Positions 22,501-40,885 of a stretch of DNA of 64,000 nt are shown here, one piece after another (the first letter of the stretch is position 1; each line of letters starts with the position of its first letter). Under the pieces are notes generated by a model, which was not told the origin of the DNA, ran no database searches, and was given only the letters and a program-made list of their open reading frames with translations. The DNA lies in the NCBI GenBank assembly GCA_013334745.1, contig JAAXWY010000002.1, positions 35,421-99,420 of the forward strand, given 5' to 3'. This DNA comes from Coriobacteriia bacterium. Lineage in GTDB: Bacteria > Actinomycetota > Coriobacteriia > Anaerosomatales > JAAXUF01. The translations under genes were made by a program, and so were the position numbers.

Positions 22501-22556
22501 CATATTCGTTGGTGGAGACGAAGGGGCTCGAACCCTCGACCCTCGGCTTGCAAAGC
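22497..22556 (-). repeat. att-type direct repeat containing a 47-nt copy of the 3' part of tRNA-Ala (distal island boundary)
   Basis: The 60 nt at 22497-22556 match 40914-40973 at 59/60 positions. Positions 22510-22556 equal tRNA positions 30-76, including CCA. Confidence 0.85.
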
Positions 22557-22740
22557 GAACCGGGCGGTAGGACGTGATGGGACGTCATAGACCCTGAACT
22601 GCAGTTTCTCGGTTTCGCGTTGTACGTGATAGGACGCCGTAGGGCGGCCTCACTAAAGAGAAACTACAGAAACCACGTCCCGGCGTTCTGCCTGTCTGTG
22701 TCTCGGTAATGCCTCTCGAATGATAGCCCCCAGAGCGACC

Positions 22741-25461
22741 CTAATGCAGGTTGGGACTGCCTCGATCACACCATTGAATCTCGGCCAGGTCCTTCATCAG
22801 CCATTCGTAGCAGAGCTCCGTGATAGGGCGCTTCCCGTATACGTCCAGAAGCGTATGGACAACCGATGACGAGGACCTCTCGATCAGATCCGTTCGTGTA
22901 CGTCGGGCGTCCGCTTGGATGGCCCAAAGCTCTTCGGGCGAGGGCTCCTCATCGACAAGGCTAACGCTGACTCGCGAGTCCTCCCCCTCGGGCAGGGGGA
23001 CGAGGTGCCATATGCCGACAGGTTGCGATTCCCATCCTGTGCCCTCCCGAAAGTGCAAGTAGAACACCAGTTCAACCGGTGAGAGGGCCCAGGTCCTAAG
23101 ATGTCGTGCGAGTGGCTGGAACAGTCCCTGTGCGAGGCGCTCGTAGGATCTCAATGCACCCTCGTAGACTCCCTCGACTCGTCGTCTAAGTTGCTCGGGT
23201 GAGTAGAAGTCCCAGACCCAAGCGCTACTACCAGACCCACGGAGGGAGAGGTCGACGTCAGGAAGGGGCCACGGCGGAACGAAGTTCTCTTCGCCAATAG
23301 CACGAAGTCGCTCGATTTCGGGCAGTACCAAGGCGAGTGGGTGCTCTAGTCCCTTCGGAGCGCCCGCGAAGACTATCTCTTCCAAGGGGCAGCCGGTGAT
23401 GTCACCAAATCGTGCCTGAATGAGTTCTTCGAGTGCCTGCACCCCGATTGCGTCACGCGGTGCACCTCTCCCGAGTACGACGTTCGCACTGTTCCAGATG
23501 GCCTCATGCATGACCTCGTCGGCTTCGGGGAATGGGGCCCCGCTTCTGAGAAGCGCCGTCATCTGCTTGCGAACGTGCTGCTGCGCCGTACGCCAAGGCC
23601 AGGCCGGGGCTGGCCCCGGGTACAGGAATCCCGACTGTGTCCAGCGGTATCGACTCGGTCCATCCCAACGAATGTCGCCGGGCTTAGTCTCTATGACGTC
23701 ACCGCTCTCGGGCCTTTCAGCCAGCCACGCGAAGTCCAATCGCGGCCCGTCGGTACTCACGCCCAAAGCTTGCACTTCGCCATCCGATGCGACAGGAACG
23801 AGCATGTCCCCCAGAGGACCGAGACCCTTGTGAAATCCGATCATTGCATGGCGCAACAGCGTTCCTGCCTTGTCGGCGTCAGGCATTGGAGTCGCCCGGT
23901 CTCTGTCGGCGAGGGGAGATGCACTCTCGCCGAGCAGCTCACCCACTAGGCCAGGATCGACCCGCACGAGCACTGACAGGAGGTTGTCCACAAACTCGGT
24001 GGGGGCGAGCTCCAAGAGCACTCTGAGGGCGCCCCTCCACCTGGAGAGCTGCTCTGGGGCCGATGCCAGTTCATCGGCATCGACTGCGCCCTTGAGGATC
24101 GCTCTCGCGGCGAACCATTCTTGGAGAAGCGCTAGCGGAAACGAAACCTGGCCGTCTCTTTGTTCAACGAGTCCAGAGTCGGTCAGTGAGGCAAGGTTTC
24201 CCGTGTGCGGCAGGTCTCTCGGAGCAACGGCCCGTGCGGAGGCAGTGGTGCTTACCGCGAGATGCATGAGCCATTCGTCAGCCTCAGAGTACCGACGCTC
24301 GCTGCCGGGAAGGCCTCGACGAACCAGATGCTGCACGAGTTCGCCGGTTGTTGCCGGCACCGCCGGATTCTCTCTGAGCCACAGACCCATCAGCAGAGCG
24401 AACAGCGGGAGCTTGGTTGCTTCGCGAATGCTCGGAGGCCATCGATTGACCTCCCAAGACCTCACCTCGCGATTCGCCGCCTTGGAGACCAAGGCTGAGG
24501 TTTCGCTCGGCTCCAGCGTTTCGATTGTGGTCCGCTCATCGTCGCCGAGATTCAGAGGCAGCGGCCGAGTTGTCAGCAGGCATGTGCTGCCGGTGATAGC
24601 GTTGAACGCACGTGCTTCGTTCAGAAGCCGCTCAGCATGCGACAGGTCGAGTTCGTCGAGACCGTCGACGATGACCACGGTTCCACCCGTTCCTCCGCCT
24701 CCGAGGCGCTTCTCGCGTTCTCCGACTTGCGTGTGGAGTGGTTCGTCGGTGAGCGTGTGTGAGTCGAGCCACACAGGCGCTAGGTCAACATCTGATGAAG
24801 CCAGTTGGATTGTGTACTGCAGCACGCTCTCTGCGAACGTGCTCTTTCCTGCGCCGACGGGAGCCACGACCACCTTCAGTGAACCCGAGCGGACCAGCCG
24901 CTCTGCCGCTTTCACGTGGAGTGACAGTAGTAGCGAGGCGAACGCTGGGGCTTGGGCTGATTCGACGCCGGCAGCAATACACCGTGTCGTCATGCGCTGA
25001 TTGGAGCCATGAACTAGCTCCTGCAGTACTTCCTCGCGTGGAGTCGTATGCAGAGTGACCAGTGCCTCGGACGCTTGAGCAGCCTTGGTTGCCTCCCTCA
25101 GGGTGCTGAGCTGAAGGTCATACCGCTGTGCAACCCGGAACGCAGCTAGGTAGGCTTCCGCGAGTTCCGGAGAGTCATCCGGTCGGTTGTCGAACCGTGA
25201 GAGGTTGAGATCACCTGTAGTGAGTGCATCTGTGCGCAGGCTGAGGGCCTCCTCGACGATGAGAACCCAGTTTTCCTCCCAGGCAAGGAAGCTCTCGTCG
25301 ACTGGCTGAATCGCGGACCATGACTCGCCTGCAGCCAACTCCGCGACGGCAGCATCATGAGCAGCGATAATCCTGGCCTGCGCCTCATCTCGGGGCGTCT
25401 TTCCCGGCAGCATGATCGGGAGAAGCGAGACTGCGAGTCCTATGGCTTCCATGATTGGCAT
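22741..25461 (-). CDS. NACHT-domain STAND NTPase (bNACHT/Avs-like candidate antiviral sensor)
   Basis: Walker A VVAPVGAGKST, the NACHT-type Walker B VVIVDGLDELD, LLTTRPLP and PLFALLMG are all present. The N-terminal region is about 220 aa and helical. The C-terminal region is about 500 aa and unassigned. I preferred the ATG at 25461 to the one at 25551. Confidence 0.85.
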   Translation of the reverse strand: MPIMEAIGLAVSLLPIMLPGKTPRDEAQARIIAAHDAAVAELAAGESWSAIQPVDESFLAWEENWVLIVEEALSLRTDALTTGDLNLSRFDNRPDDSPELAEAYLAAFRVAQRYDLQLSTLREATKAAQASEALVTLHTTPREEVLQELVHGSNQRMTTRCIAAGVESAQAPAFASLLLSLHVKAAERLVRSGSLKVVVAPVGAGKSTFAESVLQYTIQLASSDVDLAPVWLDSHTLTDEPLHTQVGEREKRLGGGGTGGTVVIVDGLDELDLSHAERLLNEARAFNAITGSTCLLTTRPLPLNLGDDERTTIETLEPSETSALVSKAANREVRSWEVNRWPPSIREATKLPLFALLMGLWLRENPAVPATTGELVQHLVRRGLPGSERRYSEADEWLMHLAVSTTASARAVAPRDLPHTGNLASLTDSGLVEQRDGQVSFPLALLQEWFAARAILKGAVDADELASAPEQLSRWRGALRVLLELAPTEFVDNLLSVLVRVDPGLVGELLGESASPLADRDRATPMPDADKAGTLLRHAMIGFHKGLGPLGDMLVPVASDGEVQALGVSTDGPRLDFAWLAERPESGDVIETKPGDIRWDGPSRYRWTQSGFLYPGPAPAWPWRTAQQHVRKQMTALLRSGAPFPEADEVMHEAIWNSANVVLGRGAPRDAIGVQALEELIQARFGDITGCPLEEIVFAGAPKGLEHPLALVLPEIERLRAIGEENFVPPWPLPDVDLSLRGSGSSAWVWDFYSPEQLRRRVEGVYEGALRSYERLAQGLFQPLARHLRTWALSPVELVFYLHFREGTGWESQPVGIWHLVPLPEGEDSRVSVSLVDEEPSPEELWAIQADARRTRTDLIERSSSSVVHTLLDVYGKRPITELCYEWLMKDLAEIQWCDRGSPNLH

Positions 25462-25758
25462 GTCTCGCCCGTCATCCTCTGGGTTGGGCCCGCGACTCTG
25501 TGCATGAGGCGGGAGGGTACGCCTTACACAGAGTAGCGTCTCAACGGCCATGATCGCTTGTGAGGTTGGCTCGAATGCTGCCGACGAGGGCAGCCAGCCG
25601 GACAGGTGGAGGTCTTCATCCCACTGGTCCTCGCTTGCTGATCAACCAAAGCTGAGTCACGCACATGCTGATGTCGCAGCGAACCTGCATAATCCTAGGG
25701 GCCGCATATCCGAGTCCGCTCGGGTGTCGTATCTGCCGGGTGAGTCTGGGGGGTCTCC

Positions 25759-27942
25759 TTGGGACGCAAGACAAGAGTTATCACGTTCGTCGTGCTGGTC
25801 ATTGCGCTGACCGCAGCGTTCTACATCGTCGCCGGGCAAGACTTCCTGTTGGACGTGCCGACCCTGGTCGTGTACACGTCGCTAGTGACCATGACGCTGG
25901 TCGTCTTCCTTGTAGAGCACTACTTCGGCACACCGTCCGGTGCGCTGGCGACCTCAATCTCCGGAGTGTTACTACTGATTCCCGCGTACGAGGGCTTGAG
26001 CGATTTGGGCCCGGTGTACTGGCTCATCCTTGTCTGGTGCGTTGGACTCGTTGCGTGCTCGAGCGCTGCCCTCATGATCCTGCCTGACAGGGAGGCGCAC
26101 GGGGCGAAGGCCGAGAGGGCGAGGTCGACTTCGGCCCGCCTCAAGGGGCTGAGCGTTCAGTACGGCAGCGCCCGACTCGTCTTCGGCTCGATTGCGGTGA
26201 CCACAGCGCTTGTATACATGATGGACGACCCGTACTTGGTGGGCCTGGTCTTCTTGTACGTCGTAGTGATCTTCGGGCTGGACACTCGAAGGCTGGGAGC
26301 CTCACGACCGCTGGAGACAACCGTGGTCGGCACAATCGTCAGGATTGAACCGAACAACGTGCTCCGCGTGACGGTCGGTAAGTACTCGGATCTAGTTGCT
26401 GGATCGAAGGTCGCCTACATTCTGCCGGGAGACGACGCGTCGGCTCGTCGCCAAGGGACGGTTGCGAAGGTCTATCGGACGATCGGTGGTCCGGAGGCCG
26501 TTGTCATTGAGGATGTCGGAGTCCTTGCACCAGCCGGGCCGGCGTTTGAGCATGGGGACGTCGCCGTCCTGCCCGAAGCGGCTACTGCCAGCGGTGTCGG
26601 TCTTGTGTCAGACAACTCAAGGATTTCATCAATCAAGGTGCAGACGTTGTCGCTCTCTGGTCTTCAGGAGGGCTCGTTACTAGCGGCGAACGTGGCCGCA
26701 GATGGCGACCAGACCGAGGTCATCTATCAGGTCTTTGACGCCGCAGTCCGGCATGAGGACGCACAGGCGCTGACAATCGCAGAAGCCGTCCAGTTGGGCG
26801 TGTGGAGCACAGCGGAATGCGGGCTTGTCAGATACGGCTGGGTTCCGCCAGTGAACACACTCATCACCCCCGTTGATGGCTCATGCAGCACGAGCGTTCC
26901 TGACGAGTCCATTCTTCTTGGCCACCTGCCGGGAACTGAGTACCCCGTCGCACTCAATCGTGACGCACTGCGGGGGACACACATCGCCATCCTTGGCGTC
27001 ACCGGATGCGGCAAGTCCGTCACCTCACGCTACCTTCTGAAGGAACTCGCGACCGATCACTCTCGCGTCGTGGTCGTCGATCTAACCGGCGAGTACGGAC
27101 GTCTGCTACGCGATCCGGCGCCGAACGCGATAGTGACCCAGGAGGTCCAGGGCAAGCTCATCGCGTCAATCGAGAAGCTCATGCTGCAGATGGCTGAGTT
27201 CCCCAACAAGCGAGACCAGAACCTCATTCGCGACTGCGAGGCCAATCTGGACAAGGGTTTCCGGCAGTCTCTAGGGGACTGGATCACTGCTGACGACGGG
27301 ACCTATGCACTGCTGGAGCTGCCGAGCTTTGAGAACACTGCTACTAGTCTGGAGTACACGCGTTGGTTCTTGCGGACGCTCTTTGATATCGCACGGACTG
27401 ACGGGCTTGCGGGCAAGAACGTCACCGTGGTCCTGGAAGAGGCTCACACGGTGGTTCCAGAGTGGAACTTCGCCGGCGCCAGAGGGGACAGGTCGGCAGA
27501 GGGCCTGCTGAACTCGATAGCCCAAATAGCATTGCAGGGCCGGAAGTACGGGATCGGGTTCGTCGTCATCGCTCAACGCACCGCCAACGTCTCCAAGACC
27601 GTCCTGACGCAGTGCTCCTCCGTGATTGCGTTTAGAAGCTACGACAACACCAGTGCCGACTTCCTGTCGAACTACTTGGGTGACGAACTGGTCAAGGCAC
27701 TACCAAACCTCCCTGACCGACACGCGATTGTGGTAGGGAGTGCCTTCCGCTCGCAGGTACCGCTGATATGTCAGGTGCTGGACATCGACGAGGGCAACGC
27801 CGAGGACGGTACTGTCGGGACGGGGCTTGAGGCGCAGGAGTCCGCAGACCCCCTGCCGGATACGTTGGTTGGCGCCCCGTCGATTGGCGAGTCGAGTCAC
27901 CCATCAGTTCCTTCAGGGCTCGACGACGACATCCCGTTCTGA
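25759..27942 (+). CDS. membrane-anchored HerA/DUF87-type (FtsK-HerA superfamily) ATPase
   Basis: About 6 hydrophobic helices in the first 190 aa or so. Then Walker A HIAILGVTGCGKS, Walker B VTVVLEEAHTVVPEW and VVIAQRTANVSKTVLTQCSSVIAFRSYDN. TTG start 5 nt after a GGGGGG run. Confidence 0.85.
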   Translation: MGRKTRVITFVVLVIALTAAFYIVAGQDFLLDVPTLVVYTSLVTMTLVVFLVEHYFGTPSGALATSISGVLLLIPAYEGLSDLGPVYWLILVWCVGLVACSSAALMILPDREAHGAKAERARSTSARLKGLSVQYGSARLVFGSIAVTTALVYMMDDPYLVGLVFLYVVVIFGLDTRRLGASRPLETTVVGTIVRIEPNNVLRVTVGKYSDLVAGSKVAYILPGDDASARRQGTVAKVYRTIGGPEAVVIEDVGVLAPAGPAFEHGDVAVLPEAATASGVGLVSDNSRISSIKVQTLSLSGLQEGSLLAANVAADGDQTEVIYQVFDAAVRHEDAQALTIAEAVQLGVWSTAECGLVRYGWVPPVNTLITPVDGSCSTSVPDESILLGHLPGTEYPVALNRDALRGTHIAILGVTGCGKSVTSRYLLKELATDHSRVVVVDLTGEYGRLLRDPAPNAIVTQEVQGKLIASIEKLMLQMAEFPNKRDQNLIRDCEANLDKGFRQSLGDWITADDGTYALLELPSFENTATSLEYTRWFLRTLFDIARTDGLAGKNVTVVLEEAHTVVPEWNFAGARGDRSAEGLLNSIAQIALQGRKYGIGFVVIAQRTANVSKTVLTQCSSVIAFRSYDNTSADFLSNYLGDELVKALPNLPDRHAIVVGSAFRSQVPLICQVLDIDEGNAEDGTVGTGLEAQESADPLPDTLVGAPSIGESSHPSVPSGLDDDIPF

Positions 27943-28003
27943 GCCCATCCGGTTGCCTCCGCCGTCGTGTGATGTGATCCTGGCGTGACGGGGAGGTCAA
28001 CCA

Positions 28004-28594
28004 TTGGATCGCATACTTGTTCACCTTGAAGCGGGGCAGCTCGACGACATCATCTCGATCGGCGTCGACGGTTCTGTCGACGTGGATACCGAGGCTCTCG
28101 CACGCGTGCTCTCGAAGCCGTTGGGCCTCGTCGGTGTTCGCGTAGCGGTCGCCAATGCGGACTACCTGCAGCATGAGGACGGAAGCCCGGAGCCCGATAC
28201 CCGGACAGTGAGTGGTATCTGGTGGCACCCGAAGGGTGATGACACTGCGCTCACCGGCGGATTCATTGTTGAGGGACACGTGCTCTCGATCACGACTGAG
28301 GGTGAGGGCGAGTCGCCGCTGGCTGAGGGTACCGAGGTTATCGAGCGAGCGACCAAGGCGATCGCTTCGCAGCACGAGGGTTCTGAGGTGCTGGAGCGGG
28401 GGCTGTTTCAAGTGCCGAGCCTGACAGGTGAGAAGCCGGTCCGTGTGGTCGTCACACGTGACTATCGGATACGTCGTCCGCAGGACCTCTTGGACGCGGA
28501 CGAGCTGGTGACGTTCGACGCTGGTCGGCTGGCGCTGGCCATCGTTCAGATGATCGGCGGCGGAAAGGCACTGGTCATCAAGCACGGGATCTAG
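28004..28594 (+). CDS. hypothetical 196-aa acidic protein, partner of the HerA-like ATPase
   Basis: TTG start 7 nt after a GGGAGG RBS. Composition and third-position G/C bias favour this strand over the Arg-rich antisense ORF 27692..28612. No motif recognised. Confidence 0.65.
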   Translation: MDRILVHLEAGQLDDIISIGVDGSVDVDTEALARVLSKPLGLVGVRVAVANADYLQHEDGSPEPDTRTVSGIWWHPKGDDTALTGGFIVEGHVLSITTEGEGESPLAEGTEVIERATKAIASQHEGSEVLERGLFQVPSLTGEKPVRVVVTRDYRIRRPQDLLDADELVTFDAGRLALAIVQMIGGGKALVIKHGI

Positions 28595-28663
28595 CCCCGC
28601 TGTGAGTGTCACTCCGTTACTCTATGGTGCGAACATCGACGCACACTCGAGGACGGATACTGC

Positions 28664-29776
28664 GTGTCGCAACTCCCTGTCATAAGCCTGTTCGCGGGCG
28701 CTGGTGGCCTTGACCTTGCCGTGCATAGATGCGCTGAGGCTCCGCTCGTGCAGGATGGGGCGGACGGCCCTCTGGAGACGGTTGTTGCAACGGACTGGGA
28801 CAAAGCTGCACTTGCGTCATTTGAGCGCAACTTCCCGGGGGTGCCAACGCTCCAAGGCGACATCAGACAGATGACGTCCTCAGGCATCATGAAGGCGGCC
28901 GGCCTCAGAAAGGGTGACGCATTCCTAGTCGTTGGGGGCCCTCCGTGTACGCCGTTCTCCAAGTCGGGCTTCTGGCTCGAGGAGAAGCGCACGAGTACTG
29001 ACCCCGACGCCTCGCTGCTCGACGAGTACGTGCGTGTCGTGCGTGACACTCAGCCCGCCGGGTTCGTGCTAGAGAACGTGCAGGGGCTAACCTACCGTAC
29101 CCACGCGAGCCAGTTCGCGAGACTACTTGGGCAGTTCTCCGAGCTTGGCTACAACCCCCAGTGGAAGGTTCTTCTGGCCGCTGACTACGGTGTGCCTCAG
29201 CTGCGGCGCCGGGTATTCGTTGTTGGTCGACGTGATGGCGTGCCGTTCGAGTTCCCGACTCCCACTCACGGGGGTATCAGCGAACGTCACGACAGCAGCG
29301 ATGAGAACCTGAGACCCTATGTGACTGCACGCACTGCGTTCAAGGGCCTTCGCACGAAGGCGGAGCCAGGCGAGATTGCTGACGGTGCGTACGGCGAGCT
29401 TCTGGCGAGTGTTCCACCCGGCCACAACTACTTGTGGCACACAGACCGTGGTGGCGGATCGCCAGTGTTCGGCTGGCGCAAGCGGTACTGGACGTTCTTG
29501 CTGAGGCTGGAGCCCGGTAGGCCGTCGACGACGGTGCAAGCGCAACCGGGCCCGTGGGTCGGTCCATTCCACTGGCAGAATGTGAGGAATGGGCAAGGTG
29601 AACTGCGGGCTCGGCGACTTCGGGTGCCGGAACTGCTAAGGCTTATGACCTTTCCTCCTACCTTCTATGCAGGCGAAGATCGCAGCACGGTCCAACGGCA
29701 AATAGGGAATGCGGTGCCCCTTGAGCTCGGGAAGGTCGTCATTCGCTCGCTATTGGAGCAGATGGGCGAACTCTAG
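28664..29776 (+). CDS. dcm: DNA (cytosine-5)-methyltransferase
   Basis: Motif I SLFAGAGGLD, motif IV GGPPCTPFS, motif VI FVLENV, motif VIII QLRRRVFVVG and motif X GNAVP are all present. Confidence 0.95.
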   Translation: MSQLPVISLFAGAGGLDLAVHRCAEAPLVQDGADGPLETVVATDWDKAALASFERNFPGVPTLQGDIRQMTSSGIMKAAGLRKGDAFLVVGGPPCTPFSKSGFWLEEKRTSTDPDASLLDEYVRVVRDTQPAGFVLENVQGLTYRTHASQFARLLGQFSELGYNPQWKVLLAADYGVPQLRRRVFVVGRRDGVPFEFPTPTHGGISERHDSSDENLRPYVTARTAFKGLRTKAEPGEIADGAYGELLASVPPGHNYLWHTDRGGGSPVFGWRKRYWTFLLRLEPGRPSTTVQAQPGPWVGPFHWQNVRNGQGELRARRLRVPELLRLMTFPPTFYAGEDRSTVQRQIGNAVPLELGKVVIRSLLEQMGEL

Positions 29777-29788
29777 TCGGGAGACAGC

Positions 29789-30856
29789 GTGAGAGTCGAC
29801 AAGGTTCAGGCACGAGAGACCCTGATGAAGGCAGTGGCTCTTGCGAAGTCAGACACCGCACTCCCAACTGAGTGGGAGGCCCATTCAGTAGCGCTTCGTG
29901 CCGACGCCATGCCAACTACGTACACGCCGTTCGTCTTCACGGCATTGTTAGCGAAGGCCACCAACCCAGCTGTTGATGCTCTGTCGATCAAGGCGGCAGC
30001 GGGACCTCGTGGCTACTCCGCACGTTCGCTCGCGAAGGACGTTGTGGTGCCAGTGGCCCAAGAGGTCGGCATCGATCTGCGCACGAAGGGGCCGGAGCCG
30101 CTCAACAACCAGCCGTTCTTCGCCTACTCGAGGGTCGACGCGATTGACCGCTCCAAGGACTCGGGCGCACTCGACTACTTGCTCTCCGCACTTCGCCGCG
30201 TAGAGTGTCTGGACGCACCTCAGGCGCTGCTTGCCCTGGCCGCTTTCGTGCGAACTGGCATCAAGCACTTCGATGGAGAGCGGATCCCGTATGTGGTGGC
30301 CGCCCGAGGTCTTGCGCAACTTCTACCAGCGGTTGAGGAGTTCCTCGCGGAGAATCCCGAGGGCGGTCAACGGGCGCAGGCCGTGGTTGCAGCGGCCATG
30401 TCGTGCGTGTTCACTGATGTGCGCACAGGACTAGTGAACGACCCGTCGCGACACCTGCCCGGCGACGTGGTGGTCTACGGCCGTCGCGACAACCCGATAC
30501 TGTCAATCGAAGTTCGAGCGAAGCTGGTAACGCCGGCTGACGCTGAGCGTTTCCGATCCCGTCTGATGGGTGCTGGCGTCCTCAAGGCACTCGTAGTCGC
30601 CTTGGCTGCACAGCAGGCACCCTTCGACTATGACTCGATTGTGGACCTCGGCACAGGGGAGACGGCCCCTACTCTGCAGGTTGTGGTTGGGCCCGTCGAC
30701 CTTCTCGCAACAGCAGCTACCTGGAGCCCCACGTCGGTTGACCAGTTCGCCAGCAACTTCCCCAAGCATCTCGCGGAGCGGCTTCTGCAGGTTGGTGCTC
30801 CGAGATCCACCGTGTCGCGGTGGGCTCGCTTGACCTACGACTTTCGGGAGGGATAG
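29789..30856 (+). CDS. putative type II restriction endonuclease cognate to the C5 methyltransferase (family not identified)
   Basis: Starts 12 nt after the methyltransferase stop on the same strand. There is a possible nuclease-like D...E..K stretch (PGDVVVYGRRDNPILSIEVRAK). The assignment rests on position only. Confidence 0.55.
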   Translation: MRVDKVQARETLMKAVALAKSDTALPTEWEAHSVALRADAMPTTYTPFVFTALLAKATNPAVDALSIKAAAGPRGYSARSLAKDVVVPVAQEVGIDLRTKGPEPLNNQPFFAYSRVDAIDRSKDSGALDYLLSALRRVECLDAPQALLALAAFVRTGIKHFDGERIPYVVAARGLAQLLPAVEEFLAENPEGGQRAQAVVAAAMSCVFTDVRTGLVNDPSRHLPGDVVVYGRRDNPILSIEVRAKLVTPADAERFRSRLMGAGVLKALVVALAAQQAPFDYDSIVDLGTGETAPTLQVVVGPVDLLATAATWSPTSVDQFASNFPKHLAERLLQVGAPRSTVSRWARLTYDFREG

Positions 30857-31124
30857 GTCGCGTCTAGTGCCGGAGCGCAGCGACGGCCTCCTCGAATGGG
30901 GTTCGGGGTTCTGAAATCGGTCTACGGCTATAAGCGGGTCATAGTGTTAATGGATTTCGGTTTCGTCAGATAAGTGCCCCCTACCCCTCGAGGGTAGTGG
31001 TCTTGAGGCCCGTTACTTCGGTGGCGGGCTTCTTTGCGTTCTGGCGTCGGTAGATCTGACGACAGGAAAGGAGGTGGTGCCGCGTCCGTCTGCGTTGAGT
31101 CCATATAGGAAGGAGGTGATCTCT

Positions 31125-31481
31125 ATGTCCAAGAAGTCGCTGAAGTCGAGAGGTGAGGATGCCGCCGCCGCGTACTTGGAGCGTTGTGGCATCTGCGTTG
31201 TCGAGCGTAGCTGGCACTGTGATGCCGGGGTGATCGACATCATCGCGTTCGACGTTGACACGCTGGTCGTCGTCGACGTGAAGACGAGAAGGGCGGCCCA
31301 GCAGGTAGGAAGCCAGGCCGTCACACCGGCAGTCACTCGTCGTGTCATTAAGCTCGCGGAGGCGTACCTCGAGTACGCCGAACTGCAGGACAAAGCGTGG
31401 CGCTACGACCGCATCGAGCTGCTCGTGATCTCCGAGGACCGGGCACTCCTACGTCACCATCGCGACGCACTGAACGCCTAG
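31125..31481 (+). CDS. yraN: YraN/UPF0102 family predicted endonuclease
   Basis: GEDAAAAYLERCG, then the PD-(D/E)xK-like stretch GVIDIIAF...LVVVDVKTRR. The ATG follows an AGGAAGGAGG RBS. Confidence 0.8.
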   Translation: MSKKSLKSRGEDAAAAYLERCGICVVERSWHCDAGVIDIIAFDVDTLVVVDVKTRRAAQQVGSQAVTPAVTRRVIKLAEAYLEYAELQDKAWRYDRIELLVISEDRALLRHHRDALNA

Positions 31482-31639
31482 CACCACCACCGACGGGAGC
31501 CGATCTCCCATAGGTGCGCACCACCGAGGCCGTACAGGATCCCCTGTGCGGCTCTTCTTGTACTTTCAGTCCGAATAGCGAAGGGCCCTTGGTGCTCGTT
31601 GCCAGGGGCCTCTTCGCGTTCACGAGAAGGAGTCATGAC

Positions 31640-32092
31640 ATGACACCCGCCGAAGTGAAGTCCACCGCCAGCGCCGACCTCGTCGACATGCTCACCCACC
31701 TGCGCCCGTCAGGCGATGCGGTGGCATGGCTTGCCGCTGTCATCTCCGATCCTGCCGCTGTCGAAGGCGTGGCCGAGCTGCGCCGTCGCTATGCCCCTGA
31801 GCCGAGTTTCCCGGTCACCGGTTCCGGTCGCATGTCAGGTGCCACCACCGTCTTCATCGACCGTGGTCGCTGGAACGCGTTCTTCTTCCAGCGCCGCATC
31901 CCGCTCATGCACGTGGGTGCGCTCATGGAGCCTGAACTCTCGGAAGGCTGGGCCTCGGTCGTCGGTCACAAAGGACGTGCGGGCTTCGCGTCGATGGACA
32001 GCCTCGCCTGTGCACTCGACATGCACGTCGACGACTTGATCTGGCAGGTCGGCACTGACGCTGAACGTGAGCGTCTTGCCGCGTGCGTGTAG
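31640..32092 (+). CDS. hypothetical protein
   Basis: The ATG is 7 nt after a GAGAAGGAG RBS. 150 aa, no motif recognised. Confidence 0.5.
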   Translation: MTPAEVKSTASADLVDMLTHLRPSGDAVAWLAAVISDPAAVEGVAELRRRYAPEPSFPVTGSGRMSGATTVFIDRGRWNAFFFQRRIPLMHVGALMEPELSEGWASVVGHKGRAGFASMDSLACALDMHVDDLIWQVGTDAERERLAACV

Positions 32093-32353
32093 TTGTACTT
32101 GGTGCCCGTGAGTCGCTGGCGTCCAAGGTTCGCGTCTAGCGAGTACGGCTCTCCATGGATATTGAGATCTCGAGCCGTCGAGCTGCGTTCCTTGGTGCCA
32201 GCGTGTCCGCCGATGTGTCGAGCTTGGTCCGCTCCGTCGGGTCAAGCGTTCTCATCGGCAGGTAGGGCACCTCCCTCACGCACCACGCTCACATCTTCCA
32301 TCCACTCGTAGGCATCCCATCCGGGGTGCCTTCTCTCCTTCAAGGAGGTAGTC

Positions 32354-33262
32354 ATGCCGACAGGAGCAAAGCCGCCCCTGTTCTCCGAGTTCGCACTGCA
32401 GTGGCTTGCCACGCGTGCCGTCGTCGAGCTCAAAGCGTCAGCGTTTCGTGAGTACGAGACGATCGTGCGCCGGCACTTGATCCCCGAGTTCGGGTCCACT
32501 CCACTGCCGGAGCTTGCCCCTCAGCGCATCCAGGAATGGATCGCCGCTTCCATCGCCAACGGGGCTTCCCCTCGCACCGTGCGGAACCGCGTCATCGTGC
32601 TACGCCGGATACTCGACACGGCCGTCGACTACGGGGTCTTGTCTCGCAACGTCGCCCGGCTCGTGGGCTCCATCCACATCGAGCCTCGCGACAAGAAGTA
32701 CCTCGATCCCGGACAGATCCGCCTGTTGCTGGACGCCACGCCCTCGTCCTGGCGCTTGTTGCTGGCACTCCCCGCACTCTGCGGACTGCGCAAGTCCGAG
32801 TGCCTCGCCCTCGAGTTCGATGACATCAGCCCGGGCAGCATGAACATCCGGATCACCAAGTCCCTTCGTGGCGGTGTCGTGACGTCCACTAAGACGACGT
32901 CTTCGGTCTCTTCGGTCCCGCTGCCGGAGTCTTTGCTCCCTTTGATAGAGCAAAGGCGTAGGCAGGCACGCGGCCACAAGCTCGTGTTCTGCAGGTCAGA
33001 CGGCTCCCCGCTCTCGGACTCCACTCCGAACCGGGTGCTTTCCACCGCACTCGATCGGGCGGGGCTGCCACACATCCGTTTCCACGACCTGCGATCCAGC
33101 TGGACGATCGCCCATCTGCAGGCCGGCACCGACATCAAGACCCTCACGGCACTCGGCAGATGGTCCTCCCCGACCACGCTGCTCGAGACCTACGCCGCCT
33201 TCATCCCATCTGTCGGCACCGACGCAGTCCGGAAGGTGGATGCCATGATCAACGACCGATAG
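32354..33262 (+). CDS. tyrosine recombinase (phage-integrase family), internal to the island
   Basis: N-terminal SAM-like core-binding segment. The catalytic set is LRKSE (Arg), RFHDLRSSW (HxxR) and GRWSSPTTLLETYAAF (Trp/Tyr). Confidence 0.85.
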   Translation: MPTGAKPPLFSEFALQWLATRAVVELKASAFREYETIVRRHLIPEFGSTPLPELAPQRIQEWIAASIANGASPRTVRNRVIVLRRILDTAVDYGVLSRNVARLVGSIHIEPRDKKYLDPGQIRLLLDATPSSWRLLLALPALCGLRKSECLALEFDDISPGSMNIRITKSLRGGVVTSTKTTSSVSSVPLPESLLPLIEQRRRQARGHKLVFCRSDGSPLSDSTPNRVLSTALDRAGLPHIRFHDLRSSWTIAHLQAGTDIKTLTALGRWSSPTTLLETYAAFIPSVGTDAVRKVDAMINDR

Positions 33263-33405
33263 AGCCGGGTGATGGCGCCCCGAGGGGTGGGGCGTCCACC
33301 GCCAACCAGAGTCGCACTCGCGGCTTACCCAGTTCTTACTACCAAGCCAAAGAAGGCCGGTCTCCCGATGCGGAGGCTGGCTTTCGCTATTCCTGGAGGT
33401 ACCTC

Positions 33406-34029
33406 ATGAAGTACGCAACAACCGACCGGCTCTCGGACGTGGAGCTCGTTGCCACGATCCTGGGACGGCAGTCACACGACGAGGCCGTCACCCGTCTCGC
33501 GACCGTGCTCGCGGTCGATGGCTGGATAGGCGGAGCACCCCTGGTCGAGATCGCCCGTGAGTACGGCACCATCGGACCGAAGAGCGTCGCCAAGCTCGAG
33601 GCTGCCGTGGAGCTCGGTCGCAGGACGCTTGCCGCTCGTGCCGCTCGGAAGGCCGATGTTATCTCGACCCCCGAAGATGTCGTCGCCCTCATCAAGCCGC
33701 TCGTGATCGGACTCGACAGAGAGATCTTCTGGTGCGCCTGCTTGGACACAAAGAACCGTGTCCTCAAGGTCGTGGAGGTCAGCGTCGGCAGCCTGAATGC
33801 ATCGATCGTGCATCCACGCGAACTGTTCAAGGAGGCCGTCATGGCTTCGGCCGCGTCCGTGGTGGTGTGCCACCAGCACCCCAGCGGAGATCCGACTCCG
33901 AGCGGTGCCGACATCCAACTCACCCGCAGGCTAGTCAAGGCCGGAGACGTGCTCGGCATCGAGGTCTTGGATCACGTCGTCATTGGGGGTGATGAGCATG
34001 CGTCGCTCAGAGATCTGGGACTCATGTAG
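33406..34029 (+). CDS. radC: RadC-like JAB/MPN domain protein
   Basis: HPRELFKEA and the VVCHQHPSGDPTPSGADIQLT JAMM motif. The ATG follows a TGGAGG RBS. The upstream ORF extension overlapping the recombinase gene was discarded. Confidence 0.9.
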   Translation: MKYATTDRLSDVELVATILGRQSHDEAVTRLATVLAVDGWIGGAPLVEIAREYGTIGPKSVAKLEAAVELGRRTLAARAARKADVISTPEDVVALIKPLVIGLDREIFWCACLDTKNRVLKVVEVSVGSLNASIVHPRELFKEAVMASAASVVVCHQHPSGDPTPSGADIQLTRRLVKAGDVLGIEVLDHVVIGGDEHASLRDLGLM

Positions 34030-34222
34030 CTGAGTCGCCAGGCAGCTTCACTTCGTTGCCATCCGCGTCGTAGAAGACGAGGGCTCCGAGCTCGAAGAGC
34101 CTCAACAGCGACTTCGCGAACTCCTGGCTCTCCGCCAGCGTGAGCTCATGGCCTTTGGCTGCCATGGCCGCTTGTATCGCTTCACCGAAGACGGGTGATT
34201 TCTGCTCGTCGTCTAGTTCCAT
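34022..34222 (-). CDS. hypothetical small acidic protein
   Basis: 66-aa ORF with plausible composition, but the RBS is weak and it overlaps the end of radC by 8 nt. Confidence 0.35.
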   Translation of the reverse strand: MELDDEQKSPVFGEAIQAAMAAKGHELTLAESQEFAKSLLRLFELGALVFYDADGNEVKLPGDSAT

Positions 34223-34325
34223 GCAGGTTCTATTCGTGTCAGTGACCCCGATCGCCTACATGGGTGGTCGGGGTCTTTGTCGTTTCGGCAGGGATGCCGG
34301 AACAGAGGAAAGGAGGTCGGTCCTG

Positions 34326-34736
34326 ATGACCGATCACTTCAAGACGCTTGGTCTCGAGCCAGGTGCGAAGCGGGTTGAGATCGAAGCTGCGTTCGAGGAG
34401 CAGCTCGCTGCCCGCAAGGCTCGTCGGCGCCGTACGTCAGATCTGCACGCCGCATTCGCAGTGCTCTCTGACCCGACGCTTCGTAGGGCGTATGAGTTGG
34501 CCCGGTTCGGGGAGGCCGCCAGCATCCGTGTCGCAGACGCCAAGGCCGTCACCATCGGTCGTGCCAGAGAGGTCGTCGCCCAGGTCGATGTGCAGGAGAT
34601 CGTTCACGACGCACGTCGACTCGGTCTCAAGAGTCTGGTGTTTGTCAGCAGGTGTACTGCTCGCGTGGCTGACGTGACTGCGGATGTGTCCCGCTCGATC
34701 CAGGTTGCTGCAAGTAGGGCGCTCGAGAACGAGTAG
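34326..34736 (+). CDS. J-domain-like protein lacking the HPD motif
   Basis: DHFKTLGLEPGAKRVEIEAAFEE...AFAVLSDPTLRRAYE resembles DnaJ helices I-III, but no HPD tripeptide is present. The ATG follows an AGGAGG RBS. Confidence 0.5.
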   Translation: MTDHFKTLGLEPGAKRVEIEAAFEEQLAARKARRRRTSDLHAAFAVLSDPTLRRAYELARFGEAASIRVADAKAVTIGRAREVVAQVDVQEIVHDARRLGLKSLVFVSRCTARVADVTADVSRSIQVAASRALENE

Positions 34737-34764
34737 AAGGACGGCCGGACAGGGAGCTGTGGGG

Positions 34765-34983
34765 TCAGTCCTGATCCACTTCTCCGGTCGGCGGCATCAG
34801 CAGTTCGGTGATGTCGACCTCGAGAGCAGTTGCCAACTTCTGCAGCGTGAGGATCGTCGTGTTTCTGCGACCTTGCTCCGCTTGCGAGATGTAGGTGCGC
34901 TCCAGACCGGCGAGGTGGGCGAGCTTCTCCTGAGTCAGGGAACGCTCGTCCCGCAGCTCCCTGAGCCGTTTACCGAAGTCCAT
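34765..34983 (-). CDS. XRE-family helix-turn-helix transcriptional regulator
   Basis: FGKRLRELRDERSLTQEKLAHLAGLERTYISQAEQGRRNTTILTLQKLATAL is a canonical HTH_3 domain. An upstream ATG at 35007 is an alternative start. Confidence 0.8.
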   Translation of the reverse strand: MDFGKRLRELRDERSLTQEKLAHLAGLERTYISQAEQGRRNTTILTLQKLATALEVDITELLMPPTGEVDQD

Positions 34984-35153
34984 GAGCTCTGCCTTCTGTT
35001 CTCGCATGGAGCGAGCATTGAGGCACTCGGTTCAGGGGTCTACGGTTCACAGGCAACGTGGTACACAGGCAACATATACTGATGCAACATCATTTCGCGT
35101 TCGTGCTGGTGAGATGTGGCATCTGCAACATCGTTGCGACGAGGGGAAGCAAC

Positions 35154-35297
35154 GTGAAAGTTCTTCTCGGGACCCTGTTCATCGGCTTCGGGATCTTCTT
35201 GCTGTTCACGATCCCGCTATCGCCAATCAGCCTGCTGCCGGCGGTCTTCTGTATCGGCGGCGGCTTTCGAGTAATCACCGGGAGCGGGTCGCTTTAG
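35154..35297 (+). CDS. possible small two-helix membrane protein
   Basis: GTG start after a GAGGGGAAG RBS. 47 aa, mostly hydrophobic (LLGTLFIGFGIFLLFTIPLSPISLLPAVFCIGGGF). Divergent from the XRE gene. Confidence 0.3.
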   Translation: MKVLLGTLFIGFGIFLLFTIPLSPISLLPAVFCIGGGFRVITGSGSL

Positions 35298-35343
35298 GGC
35301 GGGTCGCTCCTCATCCCTTTCAGCTCTTGCGACAGGAGCGACT

Positions 35344-36384
35344 ATGGATCTCTACTGGATTGACGCTGAGTGTGGCCAGCCCGAGCGCAGAGTGCGTGTG
35401 GGCGGCGAGTGGATGGGCGCCTATTCTTCGCTTACGGAGGCACTAGATGCCTGCTTGAACTGGTGGCGTCCGATGCATGAGAGTCGGTTGGGATGGTTCC
35501 AGTTGCGTGAGCGACACGGTGGCGACGTCGCCCTCGTCTGCGACATCAGCCCAGCAAATCAAGCCGCCCGCTGCGTCGTGGACGAAGGCGGCAGTTTCCT
35601 GGACTCCGGTCTGAGATTTCGAGAGACGAAACAGAGGTTCTGGGTTGTCCAGTTCTCGGAGGCATGGGCCACGGCGAATCATGACCGCTTCACCGCCTGG
35701 CTTAGACAAGGCTCCCCGTTCCCGCACAACGAAATCGACTTTGAGCGCACAAGAGTCCGTGCAGCCGAAGCCGCGAAGGCATTGGCATCAAGCGTTGCCG
35801 ATCGCGACCAACGTATAGGCCAGGCGCTCGAGGCCTGGAGTAGCGCTGAGCCTGAGGACTCGGATGTGCTGTTCTGCGATGAGCTGCAACCATCGCTGAC
35901 CTTTGCGACGAGGTCGGCGACAAGGACCGGCGATTGGAGCGTTGACGCTGTCACGCTCTCCGACTGGCACCTCGTGATCACCACGGCATGGCTTGCACTT
36001 GAGGACATCGACGCCGATTCACCCGAGCTCCGCACGGATGTCCGAGCTGTCGGAGAAGCCCTGCTCTGCATGTTTGCGCTATCGGGCGATTCGGCTGCAG
36101 CAGCAAGAGCCGCGTGCTCACTGGAGGCGCTTTGCTCGCTCAAGTGGATGAATCCGCATGTGCGTGATTCCCTCAGTGCGATCTTGCCGCACTTGAAGGC
36201 CAGTGATCTTCCAGGATGCCGGCAGCACGCAATCGAAGCACTGGGCCACTCGATAGCGGTGAACGACTCCGGGGATTGGTTGTGGTGCAGCAACTGCGAA
36301 GGCGATTGGGAGGGTGGCGGCTGGCCAAAGTGGCCGCGATCCTGTCCACTTTGTGGCGTCAGCTTCTACGACCCACGGACATGA
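35344..36384 (+). CDS. hypothetical protein with C-terminal zinc-ribbon-like CxxC...CxxC
   Basis: 346-aa ORF ending in WCSNCEGDWEGGGWPKWPRSCPLCG. No other motif recognised. Confidence 0.6.
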   Translation: MDLYWIDAECGQPERRVRVGGEWMGAYSSLTEALDACLNWWRPMHESRLGWFQLRERHGGDVALVCDISPANQAARCVVDEGGSFLDSGLRFRETKQRFWVVQFSEAWATANHDRFTAWLRQGSPFPHNEIDFERTRVRAAEAAKALASSVADRDQRIGQALEAWSSAEPEDSDVLFCDELQPSLTFATRSATRTGDWSVDAVTLSDWHLVITTAWLALEDIDADSPELRTDVRAVGEALLCMFALSGDSAAAARAACSLEALCSLKWMNPHVRDSLSAILPHLKASDLPGCRQHAIEALGHSIAVNDSGDWLWCSNCEGDWEGGGWPKWPRSCPLCGVSFYDPRT

Positions 36385-36435
36385 AGCGGATTGCAGTCGG
36401 GGTGCAACCGTTCGCCCAACGAACAGGAAGGCCAA

Positions 36436-37107
36436 TCAGGCGGTGCCGCCGATGAACGGATCACTCATCGGGTCGAAAGGCGCATCACTCTCGCCGGCTG
36501 CATGCTGCTTGCCGAGCAGGTACATCTCGATGGCACGGAGCTTCCCGCCCGACAGATATTCTGCTCGTTTCCGCATCCGGTCGACTCCTGCTACCAACTC
36601 GTCTTCAAGTCGCCTCTGACGGCCTCTCAGGCGGTCTAGATACAGGTTCGCGAGGCGGCTCTCCCGCGTTGCTTTCGCCCACGAATCGCGTCCTTGCATC
36701 ATCAGCAGCATCGAGTGGTTCAGCCGAGTGATGCACCTCGTTCTCTGCAGATCGATGTTGAGCGCTTCGGTGGCGAGTGCATCGAAGTCCTCCACGTCCG
36801 GCCATATCTTGAGGGCGGCCCACGTCTCGTGGAACTGAGCCAGGAATCGGCGGCTGAACTCCTGTTCCCAAGGACAAGGATCGCCGACAGTTGTGGAAGG
36901 GTAGCCGGCATCGCAGTAGCGGTAGTGGCAGCGACCGGTCCCTGGGCATGGGATAGGCCCTTCGAGGTGCGTTGCGTAGTTGACACTGTTGAACCTGCTG
37001 AGGCCGTAGTTGCCGGCCGGTTCGTGTCCAGATCCGCTATTTCGCTCCGATACATTCAGTGTCCCCGCACACGGGGAGGTGTTGTCCTGATGTGTGGCTG
37101 CGCCCAT
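36436..37107 (-). CDS. hypothetical Cys-rich protein
   Basis: 223-aa ORF. It has the Cys cluster CPGTGRCHYRYCDAGYPSTTVGDPCPW followed by a helical C-terminal half. Confidence 0.5.
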   Translation of the reverse strand: MGAATHQDNTSPCAGTLNVSERNSGSGHEPAGNYGLSRFNSVNYATHLEGPIPCPGTGRCHYRYCDAGYPSTTVGDPCPWEQEFSRRFLAQFHETWAALKIWPDVEDFDALATEALNIDLQRTRCITRLNHSMLLMMQGRDSWAKATRESRLANLYLDRLRGRQRRLEDELVAGVDRMRKRAEYLSGGKLRAIEMYLLGKQHAAGESDAPFDPMSDPFIGGTA

Positions 37108-37356
37108 CGACCTACTCCTCGGCCGAGTCTTGATGGCACATCGTGCTGTAGCCCGGGCACGTCGGCGCTCTTCGACAACGTAGGTCGGTCGCCGAATCGC
37201 GACTCGGTTCGGAGGCTGAACCGTACGCCATCTCCACGATCTCGTCGGCGATCGCCAGAAGGAAGCTCCTTGGCTCGGACTCGGTGCTCGCGTTCTTGGT
37301 GCCGCACATTGGCTGCTCCCTTCGGTCGGCGGTCGGCCAGGCCATCTCCGACGCCT

Positions 37357-37539
37357 CTACTGCAGCACCGCCAATGCGAGTACGAGCAGGTTCAACGCGA
37401 TCAGGAATGCGATCAGCTCGATGGTCAGCCGAGCGGTCCTGTCGGCCATCTCGATTGCGAGCTCGAATCGTGCGTCGGCTTCTTCCATCGACTGTCGATG
37501 CGTGTCAGTCACGGAGTCTCCTTCACTTGGCGCCGTCAC
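37357..37539 (-). CDS. small tail-anchored membrane protein
   Basis: 60 aa with a C-terminal hydrophobic helix (LTIELIAFLIALNLLVLALAVL). The start abuts the stop of the Rep-like gene. Confidence 0.4.
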   Translation of the reverse strand: MTAPSEGDSVTDTHRQSMEEADARFELAIEMADRTARLTIELIAFLIALNLLVLALAVLQ

Positions 37540-38073
37540 CTAACGAGCACCGACCTGAGCCACAGACAGAGTGCGGTCAAGCACCGAAGTCCGCACCGAC
37601 GGATCTGAGGCCCGCGTCGCTACATAGAAGTAGGCGCCGGGATCGGCCGGGCCACCCTTCCAGATGCCATGCGCAGAACCCCACGCTTTGCCGATCGCTC
37701 CTATGTTCTCGTCCCAGTCGCAGATGGCGTGGACGTGGATGCCCCCGTCGTCGTGGTTCTGGTGCGCTGTGGCGAAGAAGTTGCCCGTGTATCCGGCATC
37801 TCGGATGCACTTCTCGAAGTCGTCGAGTACGACGTCGGCTGCGGCCTTCCCCTTTGGTGCTTTGCGATACGTACCGCTGAAGAAAAGAGCCGCCGGCATT
37901 CGGGCCATCAGATGATCCTCGGCCAATCGCACGATCCTCGTGTCGGTGATGAAGTAGCGGTCGGCGTCCACCCTGTCGGGGATCTCCTGCGACTCATACG
38001 GATACAGCCGCGATATCTCCCGGTGGCGTCGCTTGATCTCCGAGCGTCGAACCCTAGGTACTTGGTTACTCAT
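37540..38073 (-). CDS. small HUH-type endonuclease-like protein (candidate rolling-circle Rep/relaxase)
   Basis: The order of motifs resembles Rep motifs I-III: FFSGTY (motif I-like), GGIHVHAIC (HUH-like) and GAYFYVATR (Tyr motif-like). Confidence 0.5.
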   Translation of the reverse strand: MSNQVPRVRRSEIKRRHREISRLYPYESQEIPDRVDADRYFITDTRIVRLAEDHLMARMPAALFFSGTYRKAPKGKAAADVVLDDFEKCIRDAGYTGNFFATAHQNHDDGGIHVHAICDWDENIGAIGKAWGSAHGIWKGGPADPGAYFYVATRASDPSVRTSVLDRTLSVAQVGAR

Positions 38074-38452
38074 CTTCCTTCTTCAGCCTCTCCATCTTCC
38101 CGGTATCTCCCTCTGGACATACCTATCCATCAAGTCCGGGGTTCCGGGCTCTACCTAAGTAGTACGGCTTCGATCTGAAAAAGTGCACAACTCGCGAAGT
38201 ACCGAGCGTCCTCCGATGCGAGCGCTCGATCAGCCACGTGCTGTCTCTCGCGTAGGAGGAGCTCGACTGGATGCACGGCACGGTCGACTTCCACCGACGA
38301 CCCTGCAGGCGACCTCGCGTTCGTCGGGAAACGCCCGCCGCCGGGCTGTCCGCAGCGAATCCCGAGGCCGGCTCCGTGCCAGTATTTGGTCAGGTCTAGA
38401 ACGACCGATCGTCGAGAAGGCGGGTGAAATCCGCCGAGGAAGGATAGCCCGT

Positions 38453-39668: not shown

Positions 39669-39686
39669 AGAAAGGGCGGCATCGCC

Positions 39687-40877: not shown

Positions 40878-40885
40878 GAGACAAA

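Follow-up and report, generated by a model that had tools for sequence, protein, structure and literature searches.

This study was concerned with two neighbouring genes in a 64,000-nucleotide (nt) stretch of DNA from a Coriobacteriia bacterium (NCBI GenBank assembly GCA_013334745.1, contig JAAXWY010000002.1, positions 35,421 to 99,420 of the forward strand). The whole stretch is called the window, and all coordinates without a locus name refer to it. The first gene (25759-27942, + strand, TTG start, TGA stop at 27940-27942) encodes a predicted membrane-anchored HerA-clade ATPase of 727 amino acids (aa), and the second (28004-28594, + strand, TTG start at 28004) encodes an acidic protein of 196 aa. 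An original prediction, made before any database search, proposed that the two form an undescribed defence or abortive-infection module or, alternatively, that the ATPase transfers the DNA of the mobile element on which it lies. Our analysis indicates that the HerA gene is probably a lone, membrane-tethered candidate defence gene carried as cargo, that the 196-aa gene belongs independently to the backbone of the element, and that the two meet at a breakpoint.

Both genes lie on an 18.4-kb tRNA-Ala integrative island that spans positions 22509-40973. The locus carries all three marks of a tRNA-integrated genomic island, namely a framing repeat, an integrase and a lower G+C content. The island is framed by an exact 48-bp direct repeat (22509-22556, the attL-type copy, is identical to 40926-40973), and the attR-type copy at 40926-40973 forms the 3' part of a tRNA-Ala gene detected by ARAGORN at 40927-41002 on the - strand. 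The island integrase (39687-40877, + strand; Pfam Phage_integrase, E 8e-23) adjoins this tRNA. The G+C content is 0.615 in the island vs 0.653 and 0.662 in its flanks. From left to right, the repeat is followed by a 936-aa NTPase on the - strand, HerA, the 196-aa gene, a C5 cytosine methylase, a SacI-type endonuclease, UPF0102, a 192-aa protein, a tyrosine recombinase, RadC, a DnaJ-like protein, several open reading frames (ORFs) without a match, a DUF5131 protein, the integrase and the tRNA.

The comparisons described below divide this region into a left variable slot, cargo slot 1 (22557-27949), which holds the 936-aa NTPase and HerA; the 196-aa gene with its leader; cargo slot 2 (28595-30897, + strand), which holds a type II restriction-modification (R-M) cassette identified by Pfam and PADLOC matches; and a backbone block (30898-34736, + strand), identified by Pfam matches and by synteny with sister islands. 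The 936-aa NTPase (22741-25551, - strand) is the second gene of cargo slot 1. The original prediction had placed the two genes of interest between a NACHT NTPase and an R-M module on a tRNA-integrated island. The R-M module and the island were upheld, and the NTPase is STAND/NACHT-like by its Walker motifs only (Walker A VGAGKST, Walker B VVIVDGLDEL), with no significant match in Pfam (NACHT, E 0.08), PADLOC, PHROG or PDB.

The relation of the HerA gene to the 196-aa gene was examined in other genomes. The HerA loci that were fetched comprised four contexts, 80 genome loci, plasmids and one viral contig, and the loci with relatives of the 196-aa protein came from seven look-ups and a metagenome scan; individual loci are given L numbers. 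A tblastn search of all 109 fetched loci identified HerA in 88 and the 196-aa gene in 21, and no locus contained both. The original prediction had itself named a lack of conservation of the small ORF beside the ATPase as evidence against a two-gene module, and this lack is what was found.

The DNA alignments place a boundary between the two genes. DNA homology to L091, which has the closest backbone, covers positions 27950-28594 at 86% and 30898-33400 at 88%, and both the HerA gene and the R-M cassette lie outside it. In a three-way alignment, identity begins at approximately position 27950, 8 nt past the HerA stop codon, and the upstream sequence is unrelated. Homology to L091, L003 and L108 starts at 27950-27969, and for the sister islands it breaks off at the 196-aa stop codon. 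Because DNA homology starts at approximately 27950, the 61-nt spacer between the genes holds the boundary between cargo slot 1 and the backbone. For example, L108 encodes the closest relative of the 196-aa protein (87% identical) and carries the same SacI R-M cassette, yet the DNA upstream of the shared 52-nt leader is unrelated. HerA is absent from all of the backbone-sharing loci L091, L092, L003, L001 and L108, and a protein comparison showed that the 936-aa protein is also absent from sister islands which share the backbone. The R-M cassette is not shared at the DNA level with L091, L092 or L003, whose methylases are only 25-33% identical to that of the window. UPF0102, the 192-aa protein, the recombinase, RadC and the DnaJ-like protein have 36-94% protein identity to their counterparts in sister islands.

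The cargo upstream of the 196-aa gene changes from locus to locus. It consists of Fic with a 229-aa protein, GmrSD with HNH, a Bub ubiquitin-like system or an AAA_13 ATPase. In other loci it is a UvrD helicase or HNH with a 333-aa protein, or NlpC/P60 comes directly (L097). In the conjugative relatives (L097:66-3605 and L005:1-10591), the 196-aa gene comes after a VirB4-like ATPase and an NlpC/P60 hydrolase, and nothing lies between NlpC/P60 and the 196-aa gene in L097, which represents an empty cargo slot 1. Since the conjugative relatives keep VirB4 and NlpC/P60 before the 196-aa gene, the window island looks like a reduced, non-conjugative derivative.

These results refute the pair. The HerA gene and the 196-aa gene have evolved independently of each other and adjoin at a recombination breakpoint. 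HerA is cargo of the left variable slot and has no conserved partner gene in any locus examined. The 196-aa gene belongs to the backbone of this family of islands and integrative and conjugative elements (ICEs), where it stands between two cargo slots. The arrangement is comparable to the P2/P4 defence hotspots (PMC9122126) in that a conserved anchor, here the 196-aa gene, stands between two slots of changing content. It differs from them in that the anchor, 645 bp long, is an isolated gene bordered on each side by a sharp breakpoint, and in that the downstream slot is biased to C5-methylase cassettes.

The three P-loop motifs quoted in the original prediction, HIAILGVTGCGKS, VTVVLEEAHTVVPEW and AQRTANVSKTVLTQCSSVIAFRSYDN, are all present in the 727-aa product of the ORF at 25759-27942. 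Its N-terminal membrane domain (aa 1-176; 25759-26286, + strand) is predicted to contain six transmembrane helices and one amphipathic cytoplasmic helix (approximately aa 116-135). The expectation of about six hydrophobic helices at the N-terminus was thus borne out by topology prediction, which combined hydropathy, the helices of an AlphaFold2 (AF2) model and the lysine and arginine (K/R) residues in loops. Hydropathy peaks were located at aa 7-25, 33-51, 89-107 and 158-176, AF2 contributes helices at 59-73 and 138-153, and K/R-rich loops were located at aa 1-6, 108-137 and 177-190. Because these loop charges fit, the predicted topology is one of six helices with both the N- and C-terminal ends in the cytoplasm. 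The AF2 model has a predicted local distance difference test (pLDDT) score of 78 and shows eight N-terminal helices, with the helices of the membrane domain at pLDDT ~80-90.

The membrane domain is joined by approximately 12 poorly predicted residues to a HAS-barrel-like beta domain (aa 189-400; 26323-26958, + strand), which is all-beta in the AF2 model and was matched by Foldseek to 8xau, 9c1n, 8wiv and 4d2i over 450-600 columns. The HerA ATPase core (aa 401-678; 26959-27792, + strand) follows, with Walker A (GVTGCGKS, aa 413-420, nt 26995-27018), Walker B (VVLEEAH), R595 and Q606, and with a helical insert in the AF2 model. In an alignment of 34 sequences of the HerA family, K419, E560, E561, R595 (the arginine finger) and Q606 (sensor-1) were invariant. 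A glutamine at sensor-1 together with an arginine finger upstream of core strand 4 is the signature of the HerA/FtsK clade (PMC10853773).

The protein ends in an acidic C-terminal tail (aa 679-727; 27793-27939, + strand) that is predicted to be disordered from residue 680 (pLDDT <50). The 52 residues at aa 676-727 have a pI of 4.05 and contain 12 D/E and no K/R residues. The tip of the tail, DDDIPF (nt 27922-27939), is identical to the C-terminal hexapeptide of SSB, through which SSB binds many genome-maintenance proteins (PMC5872125). In the nearest HerA homologues the tips are DEEIPF (P0052), VDIPF (P0053) and VDSPF (L011), and they come after linkers of unrelated sequence.

The Pfam DUF87/HerA model matched the 727-aa protein at 62.2 bits (gathering score 23.2; E 1e-16), and the HerA models of PADLOC matched at up to E 6e-33, with no other PADLOC match. 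In a Foldseek search of the AF2 model against PDB, all 50 of the top 50 matches were HerA (E 1e-17 to 1e-13), including DUF4297-HerA, SIR2-HerA, and Sulfolobus and Thermococcus HerA, and a sequence search of PDB agreed. Judged by the Pfam match, the HAS barrel, the catalytic signature and the modelled fold, the protein is a true member of the HerA clade with a conserved membrane domain.

The family to which the window HerA belongs consists of 45 protein clusters and was present in 268 of approximately 185,000 species-representative genomes. These genomes represent Actinomycetota, Pseudomonadota, Bacteroidota, Bacillota, Spirochaetota, Acidobacteriota, candidate-phyla-radiation lineages and one archaeon, a methanogen. 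Such a patchy spread over unrelated phyla points to horizontal transfer of the family. In every full-length member, hydrophobic helices occur within the first ~180 residues and the Walker A motif lies at residue ~405-432, and the relatives are annotated in records only as "DUF87 domain-containing protein" or "ATP-binding protein." The gene is all but missing from phages: no relative was identified in 50,697 phage genomes, and one locus was identified in 2.9 million viral contigs.

The neighbourhoods of HerA were analyzed by several methods. No recurrent partner was identified by BLAST clustering of all ORFs within 4 kb of HerA (84 loci), and no small ORF recurred when those within 250 nt were clustered. 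The most repeated ORFs within 4 kb were HsdM (10 loci), HsdR (5), HsdS (4 plus 4), C5 methylases (5) and integrases (4). The 145 proteins that flank HerA most closely matched 138 different Pfam families, the commonest of which were ResIII, Methylase_S, HSDR_N, PLDc_2, Mrr_cat and Eco47II. HerA is found time and again in variable regions where genes of type I R-M, Abi and toxin-antitoxin systems and reverse-transcriptase genes abound. For example, the gene order in L010 is HsdM-HsdS-HerA-HEPN_Swt1-YhcG-HsdR, which places HerA inside a type I operon. Also, on rhizobial plasmids HerA adjoins Abi, AbiE, Fic and reverse-transcriptase genes.

The closest relative of the window HerA (66% identical; L007/L109, contig SRR22387826_280311) lies on a related island backbone, whose RadC is 71% identical. 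There HerA comes after a large integrase and is then followed by a PIN_12 protein, which is where it would be expected if this were the opposite end of the island or if the order were circularly permuted. In L011, a frameshifted PIN_12 gene lies upstream of HerA. Both PIN_12 and HEPN_Swt1 were considered as lost partners of HerA and were rejected, as the window holds no trace of either.

As originally predicted, the window HerA fits no described HerA architecture. SIR2 and DUF4297 were absent as neighbours in the window, from the top 25 Pfam families of the 145 flanking proteins and from the recurrent BLAST clusters, and NurA was not found among neighbours by a Pfam scan of the window or of the 145 flanking proteins. 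The two anti-phage HerA equivalogs of NCBIfam scored 71.4 bits (cut-off 800) and 68.7 bits (cut-off 850), and the helicase_HerA equivalog, which represents NurA-HerA, scored 60.6 bits (cut-off 970). The window HerA has in common with SIR2-HerA (Nezha/Gao_Her) and DUF4297-HerA the HerA clade, the HAS barrel with ATPase and the defence-island setting, and its best PDB sequence and structure matches are these systems (8wiv, 8xau, 9c1n, 8ziq and 8j4u). It differs from them in that it and the 88 related loci have no adjacent SIR2 or DUF4297 gene, and in that a predicted polytopic membrane domain of ~180 residues is fused N-terminal to its HAS barrel. With the NurA-HerA end-resection complex of archaea and some bacteria it shares the fold (4d2i, 9x1m) and the catalytic signature. 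Unlike that complex, the window HerA is apparently membrane-anchored and has no NurA neighbour, and its family shows a patchy, mobile phyletic pattern rather than that of a core repair operon. Gao_Tmn, a single-gene KAP NTPase with transmembrane segments, and the window HerA would both be lone genes of defence islands whose product joins membrane helices to a P-loop NTPase, and they differ in the NTPase clade (KAP vs HerA) and in the position of the transmembrane segments. No description of a membrane-bound defence HerA was found in literature searches, the 2004 survey of the FtsK-HerA superfamily (Iyer et al.) lying outside those searches.

We infer that HerA may act as a single-gene defence against phages or other mobile DNA. 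In the solved SIR2-, DUF4297- and NurA-HerA complexes, the partner docks on the HAS-barrel face of the ring. In the mechanism proposed here, a hexameric HerA ring would be held under the cytoplasmic membrane with its HAS-barrel face towards the membrane. Because the membrane domain is joined to the barrel by ~12 residues, the hexamer would set this face, the docking site of SIR2, DUF4297 and NurA elsewhere, against the inner side of the membrane and under a collar of 36 helices. Close to the membrane, such a ring could load onto the free ends of invading DNA, which it would translocate with ATP. The output may take either of two forms. The 36-helix membrane collar could replace a separate effector and permeabilise the membrane, which would result in abortive infection, or the six SSB-like DDDIPF tails could recruit host SSB-interacting nucleases or helicases, by which the DNA would be destroyed. 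The DDDIPF tip, with IPF kept in the nearest homologues, lends support to the variant with hand-over to nucleases. The combined proposal is offered tentatively, as a possibility that falls short of an even chance: in a new and widespread single-gene immune system, a fused polytopic membrane module would replace the SIR2, nuclease or NurA effector, the DDDIPF tails of the actinobacterial members would recruit host SSB-interacting nucleases or helicases to DNA captured at the membrane, and, separately, the 196-aa protein would be a protein of new fold with a functional link to 5-methylcytosine R-M cassettes.

Several observations weigh against HerA as a lone defence gene acting in this manner. 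The defence role is assigned by guilt by association, and the neighbour counts are raw, uncorrected for genome background. In a few loci a nuclease gene lies beside HerA (PIN_12 in L007 and L011, HEPN_Swt1 in L010), so some members of the family may use a separate effector. The SSB-like tip is limited to the actinobacterial subclade, and most of the family has a generic acidic tail. In addition, among the folded parts of the protein the membrane domain is conserved least (the window protein is 18% identical to distant members in the membrane domain, 25% in the barrel and 44% in the ATPase), and every residue conserved in it is hydrophobic; a simple anchor is therefore as likely as a pore. Lastly, the combination of a membrane domain with a ring ATPase is also the architecture of DNA pumps and type IV coupling proteins, and the Pfam model TrwB_AAD_bind matched at 36.8 bits (cut-off 20.5), with its best stretch covering ~40 residues round the P-loop (profile positions 16-57 of 387).

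These last points favour the alternative in the original prediction, in which the membrane HerA would serve the island as its DNA-transfer ATPase, either TraB/FtsK-like or a type IV coupling protein. FtsK/SpoIIIE, actinomycete TraB, TrwB/VirD4 and archaeal CedB likewise have N-terminal transmembrane helices and a hexameric P-loop ATPase of the FtsK-HerA superfamily, the window HerA matches them weakly round the P-loop and lies on a mobile island, and four of the eight plasmids with a HerA relative were typed conjugative. However, the window HerA differs from all of these in its HerA-specific HAS barrel and in its lack of a gamma or winged helix-turn-helix (wHTH) DNA-recognition domain, since no C-terminal wHTH was seen in the AF2 model, in which aa 680-727 are disordered and acidic. 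It is also below the thresholds of the FtsK_SpoIIIE (16 bits, cut-off 24), NCBIfam plasmid_TraB (13.1 bits, cut-off 800), TraD and Ced models, and no FtsK, TraB or TrwB structure was among its top 50 Foldseek matches in PDB. It belongs neither to the island backbone, being missing from sister islands with the same backbone, nor to a type IV secretion system (T4SS) cluster, and the conjugative relatives L005 and L097 have a separate VirB4-type ATPase. No T4SS or relaxase family was among the top 25 Pfam families of the 145 immediate neighbours, and in many cases HerA lies inside a type I R-M operon. Within the island, no relaxase or T4SS family was identified in the Pfam-scanned ORFs, several of which have no Pfam match at all. 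Together, the missing copies in sister islands, the sub-threshold FtsK_SpoIIIE and TraB scores, the lack of a wHTH and the HerA-only structural matches make a role in transfer of the island quite improbable. A role outside defence in which HerA serves DNA uptake or export, like archaeal Ced, or membrane-proximal DNA repair is unlikely. The architecture would suit a DNA conduit, and the NCBIfam models CedD (E 7e-11, 41 bits) and CedB matched weakly, but these scores are far under the cut-offs of 600-700 and no Ced-type partner genes recur among the neighbours. The patchy presence in 268 species genomes of unrelated phyla and the location in variable regions beside R-M, Abi and toxin-antitoxin genes also argue against it.

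The remaining alternatives provide HerA with a partner. The HerA gene and the 936-aa NTPase gene together fill cargo slot 1 and are divergent, with a shared intergenic region of 207 bp, and they could form a two-gene cargo system with the STAND-like NTPase as the sensor and HerA as the executor. HerA/FtsK modules linked to STAND or Orc/Cdc6 ATPases have been described as "capture" systems (PMC10853773, PMC12839542). However, no homologue of the 936-aa NTPase was present in any fetched HerA locus and the HerA family has no recurrent neighbour, and such a system is very doubtful. The two-gene defence or abortive-infection module of HerA and the 196-aa protein, in which the small protein would be the effector or sensor, draws on the same strand, the 61-nt gap and the lack of a terminator-like site between the genes, and on the fact that known defence HerAs act with a partner. 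Against it stand the lack of any shared locus among the 88 and the 21, the breakpoint inside the spacer, the leader which the 196-aa gene keeps as its own in islands with quite different upstream cargo, and the lack of HerA beside the closest 196-aa relative. The chance that the two genes form such a module is extremely small.

It is becoming apparent that HerA rings serve as platforms for the activation of various immune effectors. If the reading of HerA as lone membrane-tethered defence cargo is correct, a partner-free branch with its own membrane module, present in 268 species genomes, would extend this platform logic to the membrane, and the membrane HerA would be a compact single-gene system. 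That an ATPase of a defence island ends in the exact SSB C-terminal motif suggests how host nucleases could be enlisted by an immune protein. Adjacency on a single island is no evidence of a system, and here a sharp breakpoint separates cargo from backbone. The 196-aa gene marks a double hotspot, which could serve for mining defence cargo in Actinomycetota.

The 196-aa gene was found as originally described: the spacer after the TGA of HerA is 61 nt, and a ribosome-binding sequence, GGGGAGG (27990-27996), lies 7 nt before the TTG at 28004. The protein is indeed acidic (pI 4.73), has no hydrophobic segment and had no match in Pfam, PADLOC, NCBIfam or PHROGs. There are 50 homologues with 51-87% identity, almost all of which are 196 aa in length, and their N-termini align on the TTG. 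This near-constant length and the aligned N-termini indicate that the ORF is a real gene. The family is limited to this group of islands and ICEs. A profile search among 1.84 billion proteins identified only 22 representative clusters, including a few longer members without a Pfam domain. The AF2 model of the protein has an alpha/beta fold (pLDDT 92.3), and Foldseek identified no fold match in PDB or BFVD, the best having an E of 0.012 and a TM score of ~0.2. Matches to hot-dog-fold and PsbP-like proteins were rejected as noise because of TM scores of ~0.2, and the 196-aa alignment, when used as a profile against PDB sequences, found nothing. The invariant residues of the family include Y54, W73, W74, D80, T151, D153, R155, R158 and D161.

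The leader of the 196-aa gene (27950-28003, + strand), which was defined by DNA homology to L091, L003 and L108, is better conserved than the coding sequence. The segment GTGATCCTGGCGTGACGGGGAGGTCA within it is nearly identical in the window, L108 and L091. It holds GTGAT/GTGAC repeated 11 nt apart and may be an operator or promoter element.

The slot downstream of the 196-aa gene varies and contains R-M cassettes (L001, L003, L005, L091-L095, L097-L099, L101-L104 and L108), often with Vsr. Of 16 distinct loci, 15 have a C5 cytosine methylase gene within ~1.3 kb of the 196-aa gene, and the sixteenth has one 4.6 kb away. The methylase is downstream in all 15, and L102 has another just upstream. 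These methylases are 25-35% identical among themselves, occur in either orientation and are accompanied by nucleases of the SacI, Eco47II, EcoO109I, HNH and Z1/AIPR/DUF4420 types. The bias to C5 methylases may reflect a functional tie of the 196-aa gene to 5-methylcytosine systems or a taxon bias. The 196-aa protein could be an element protein with a new fold, as modelled, which is tied functionally to 5-methylcytosine R-M cassettes. Our guess is that its role would be in maintenance of the element or linked to the R-M cassette, and not with HerA.

A gene for a 189-191-aa protein comes after the 196-aa gene in L003 (L003:10595-11164, - strand) and L091 (L091:3076-3651, - strand), where it accompanies C5 methylase/EcoO109I cassettes. 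The two proteins are 71% identical, have no Pfam match and contain a PD...D-L-K motif, which is suggestive of a PD-(D/E)xK nuclease. This gene was considered as a backbone gene and was rejected, as it belongs to one type of R-M cassette and its counterpart in L097 is unrelated.

In the window, the R-M cassette consists of the C5 methylase (28664-29776, + strand) and the SacI-type endonuclease (29789-30856, + strand). The backbone block contains UPF0102 (31074-31481), the 192-aa protein (31514-32092), the tyrosine recombinase (32354-33262), the RadC ORF (33160-34029) and the DnaJ-like protein (34140-34736), all on the + strand. Three other gene products are of possible or passing interest. The 936-aa NTPase, in the same cargo slot as HerA, may be an undescribed Avs-like sensor. 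The DUF5131 protein (38183-39181, + strand) matched the PADLOC components PDC-M41B and PDC-M30B at E <= 1e-100 and may be a further defence candidate. Outside the island, an ORF of 2947 aa (45866-54709, + strand) carries GH94 and glucoamylase domains like those of cyclic beta-1,2-glucan synthases and is an ordinary chromosomal gene.

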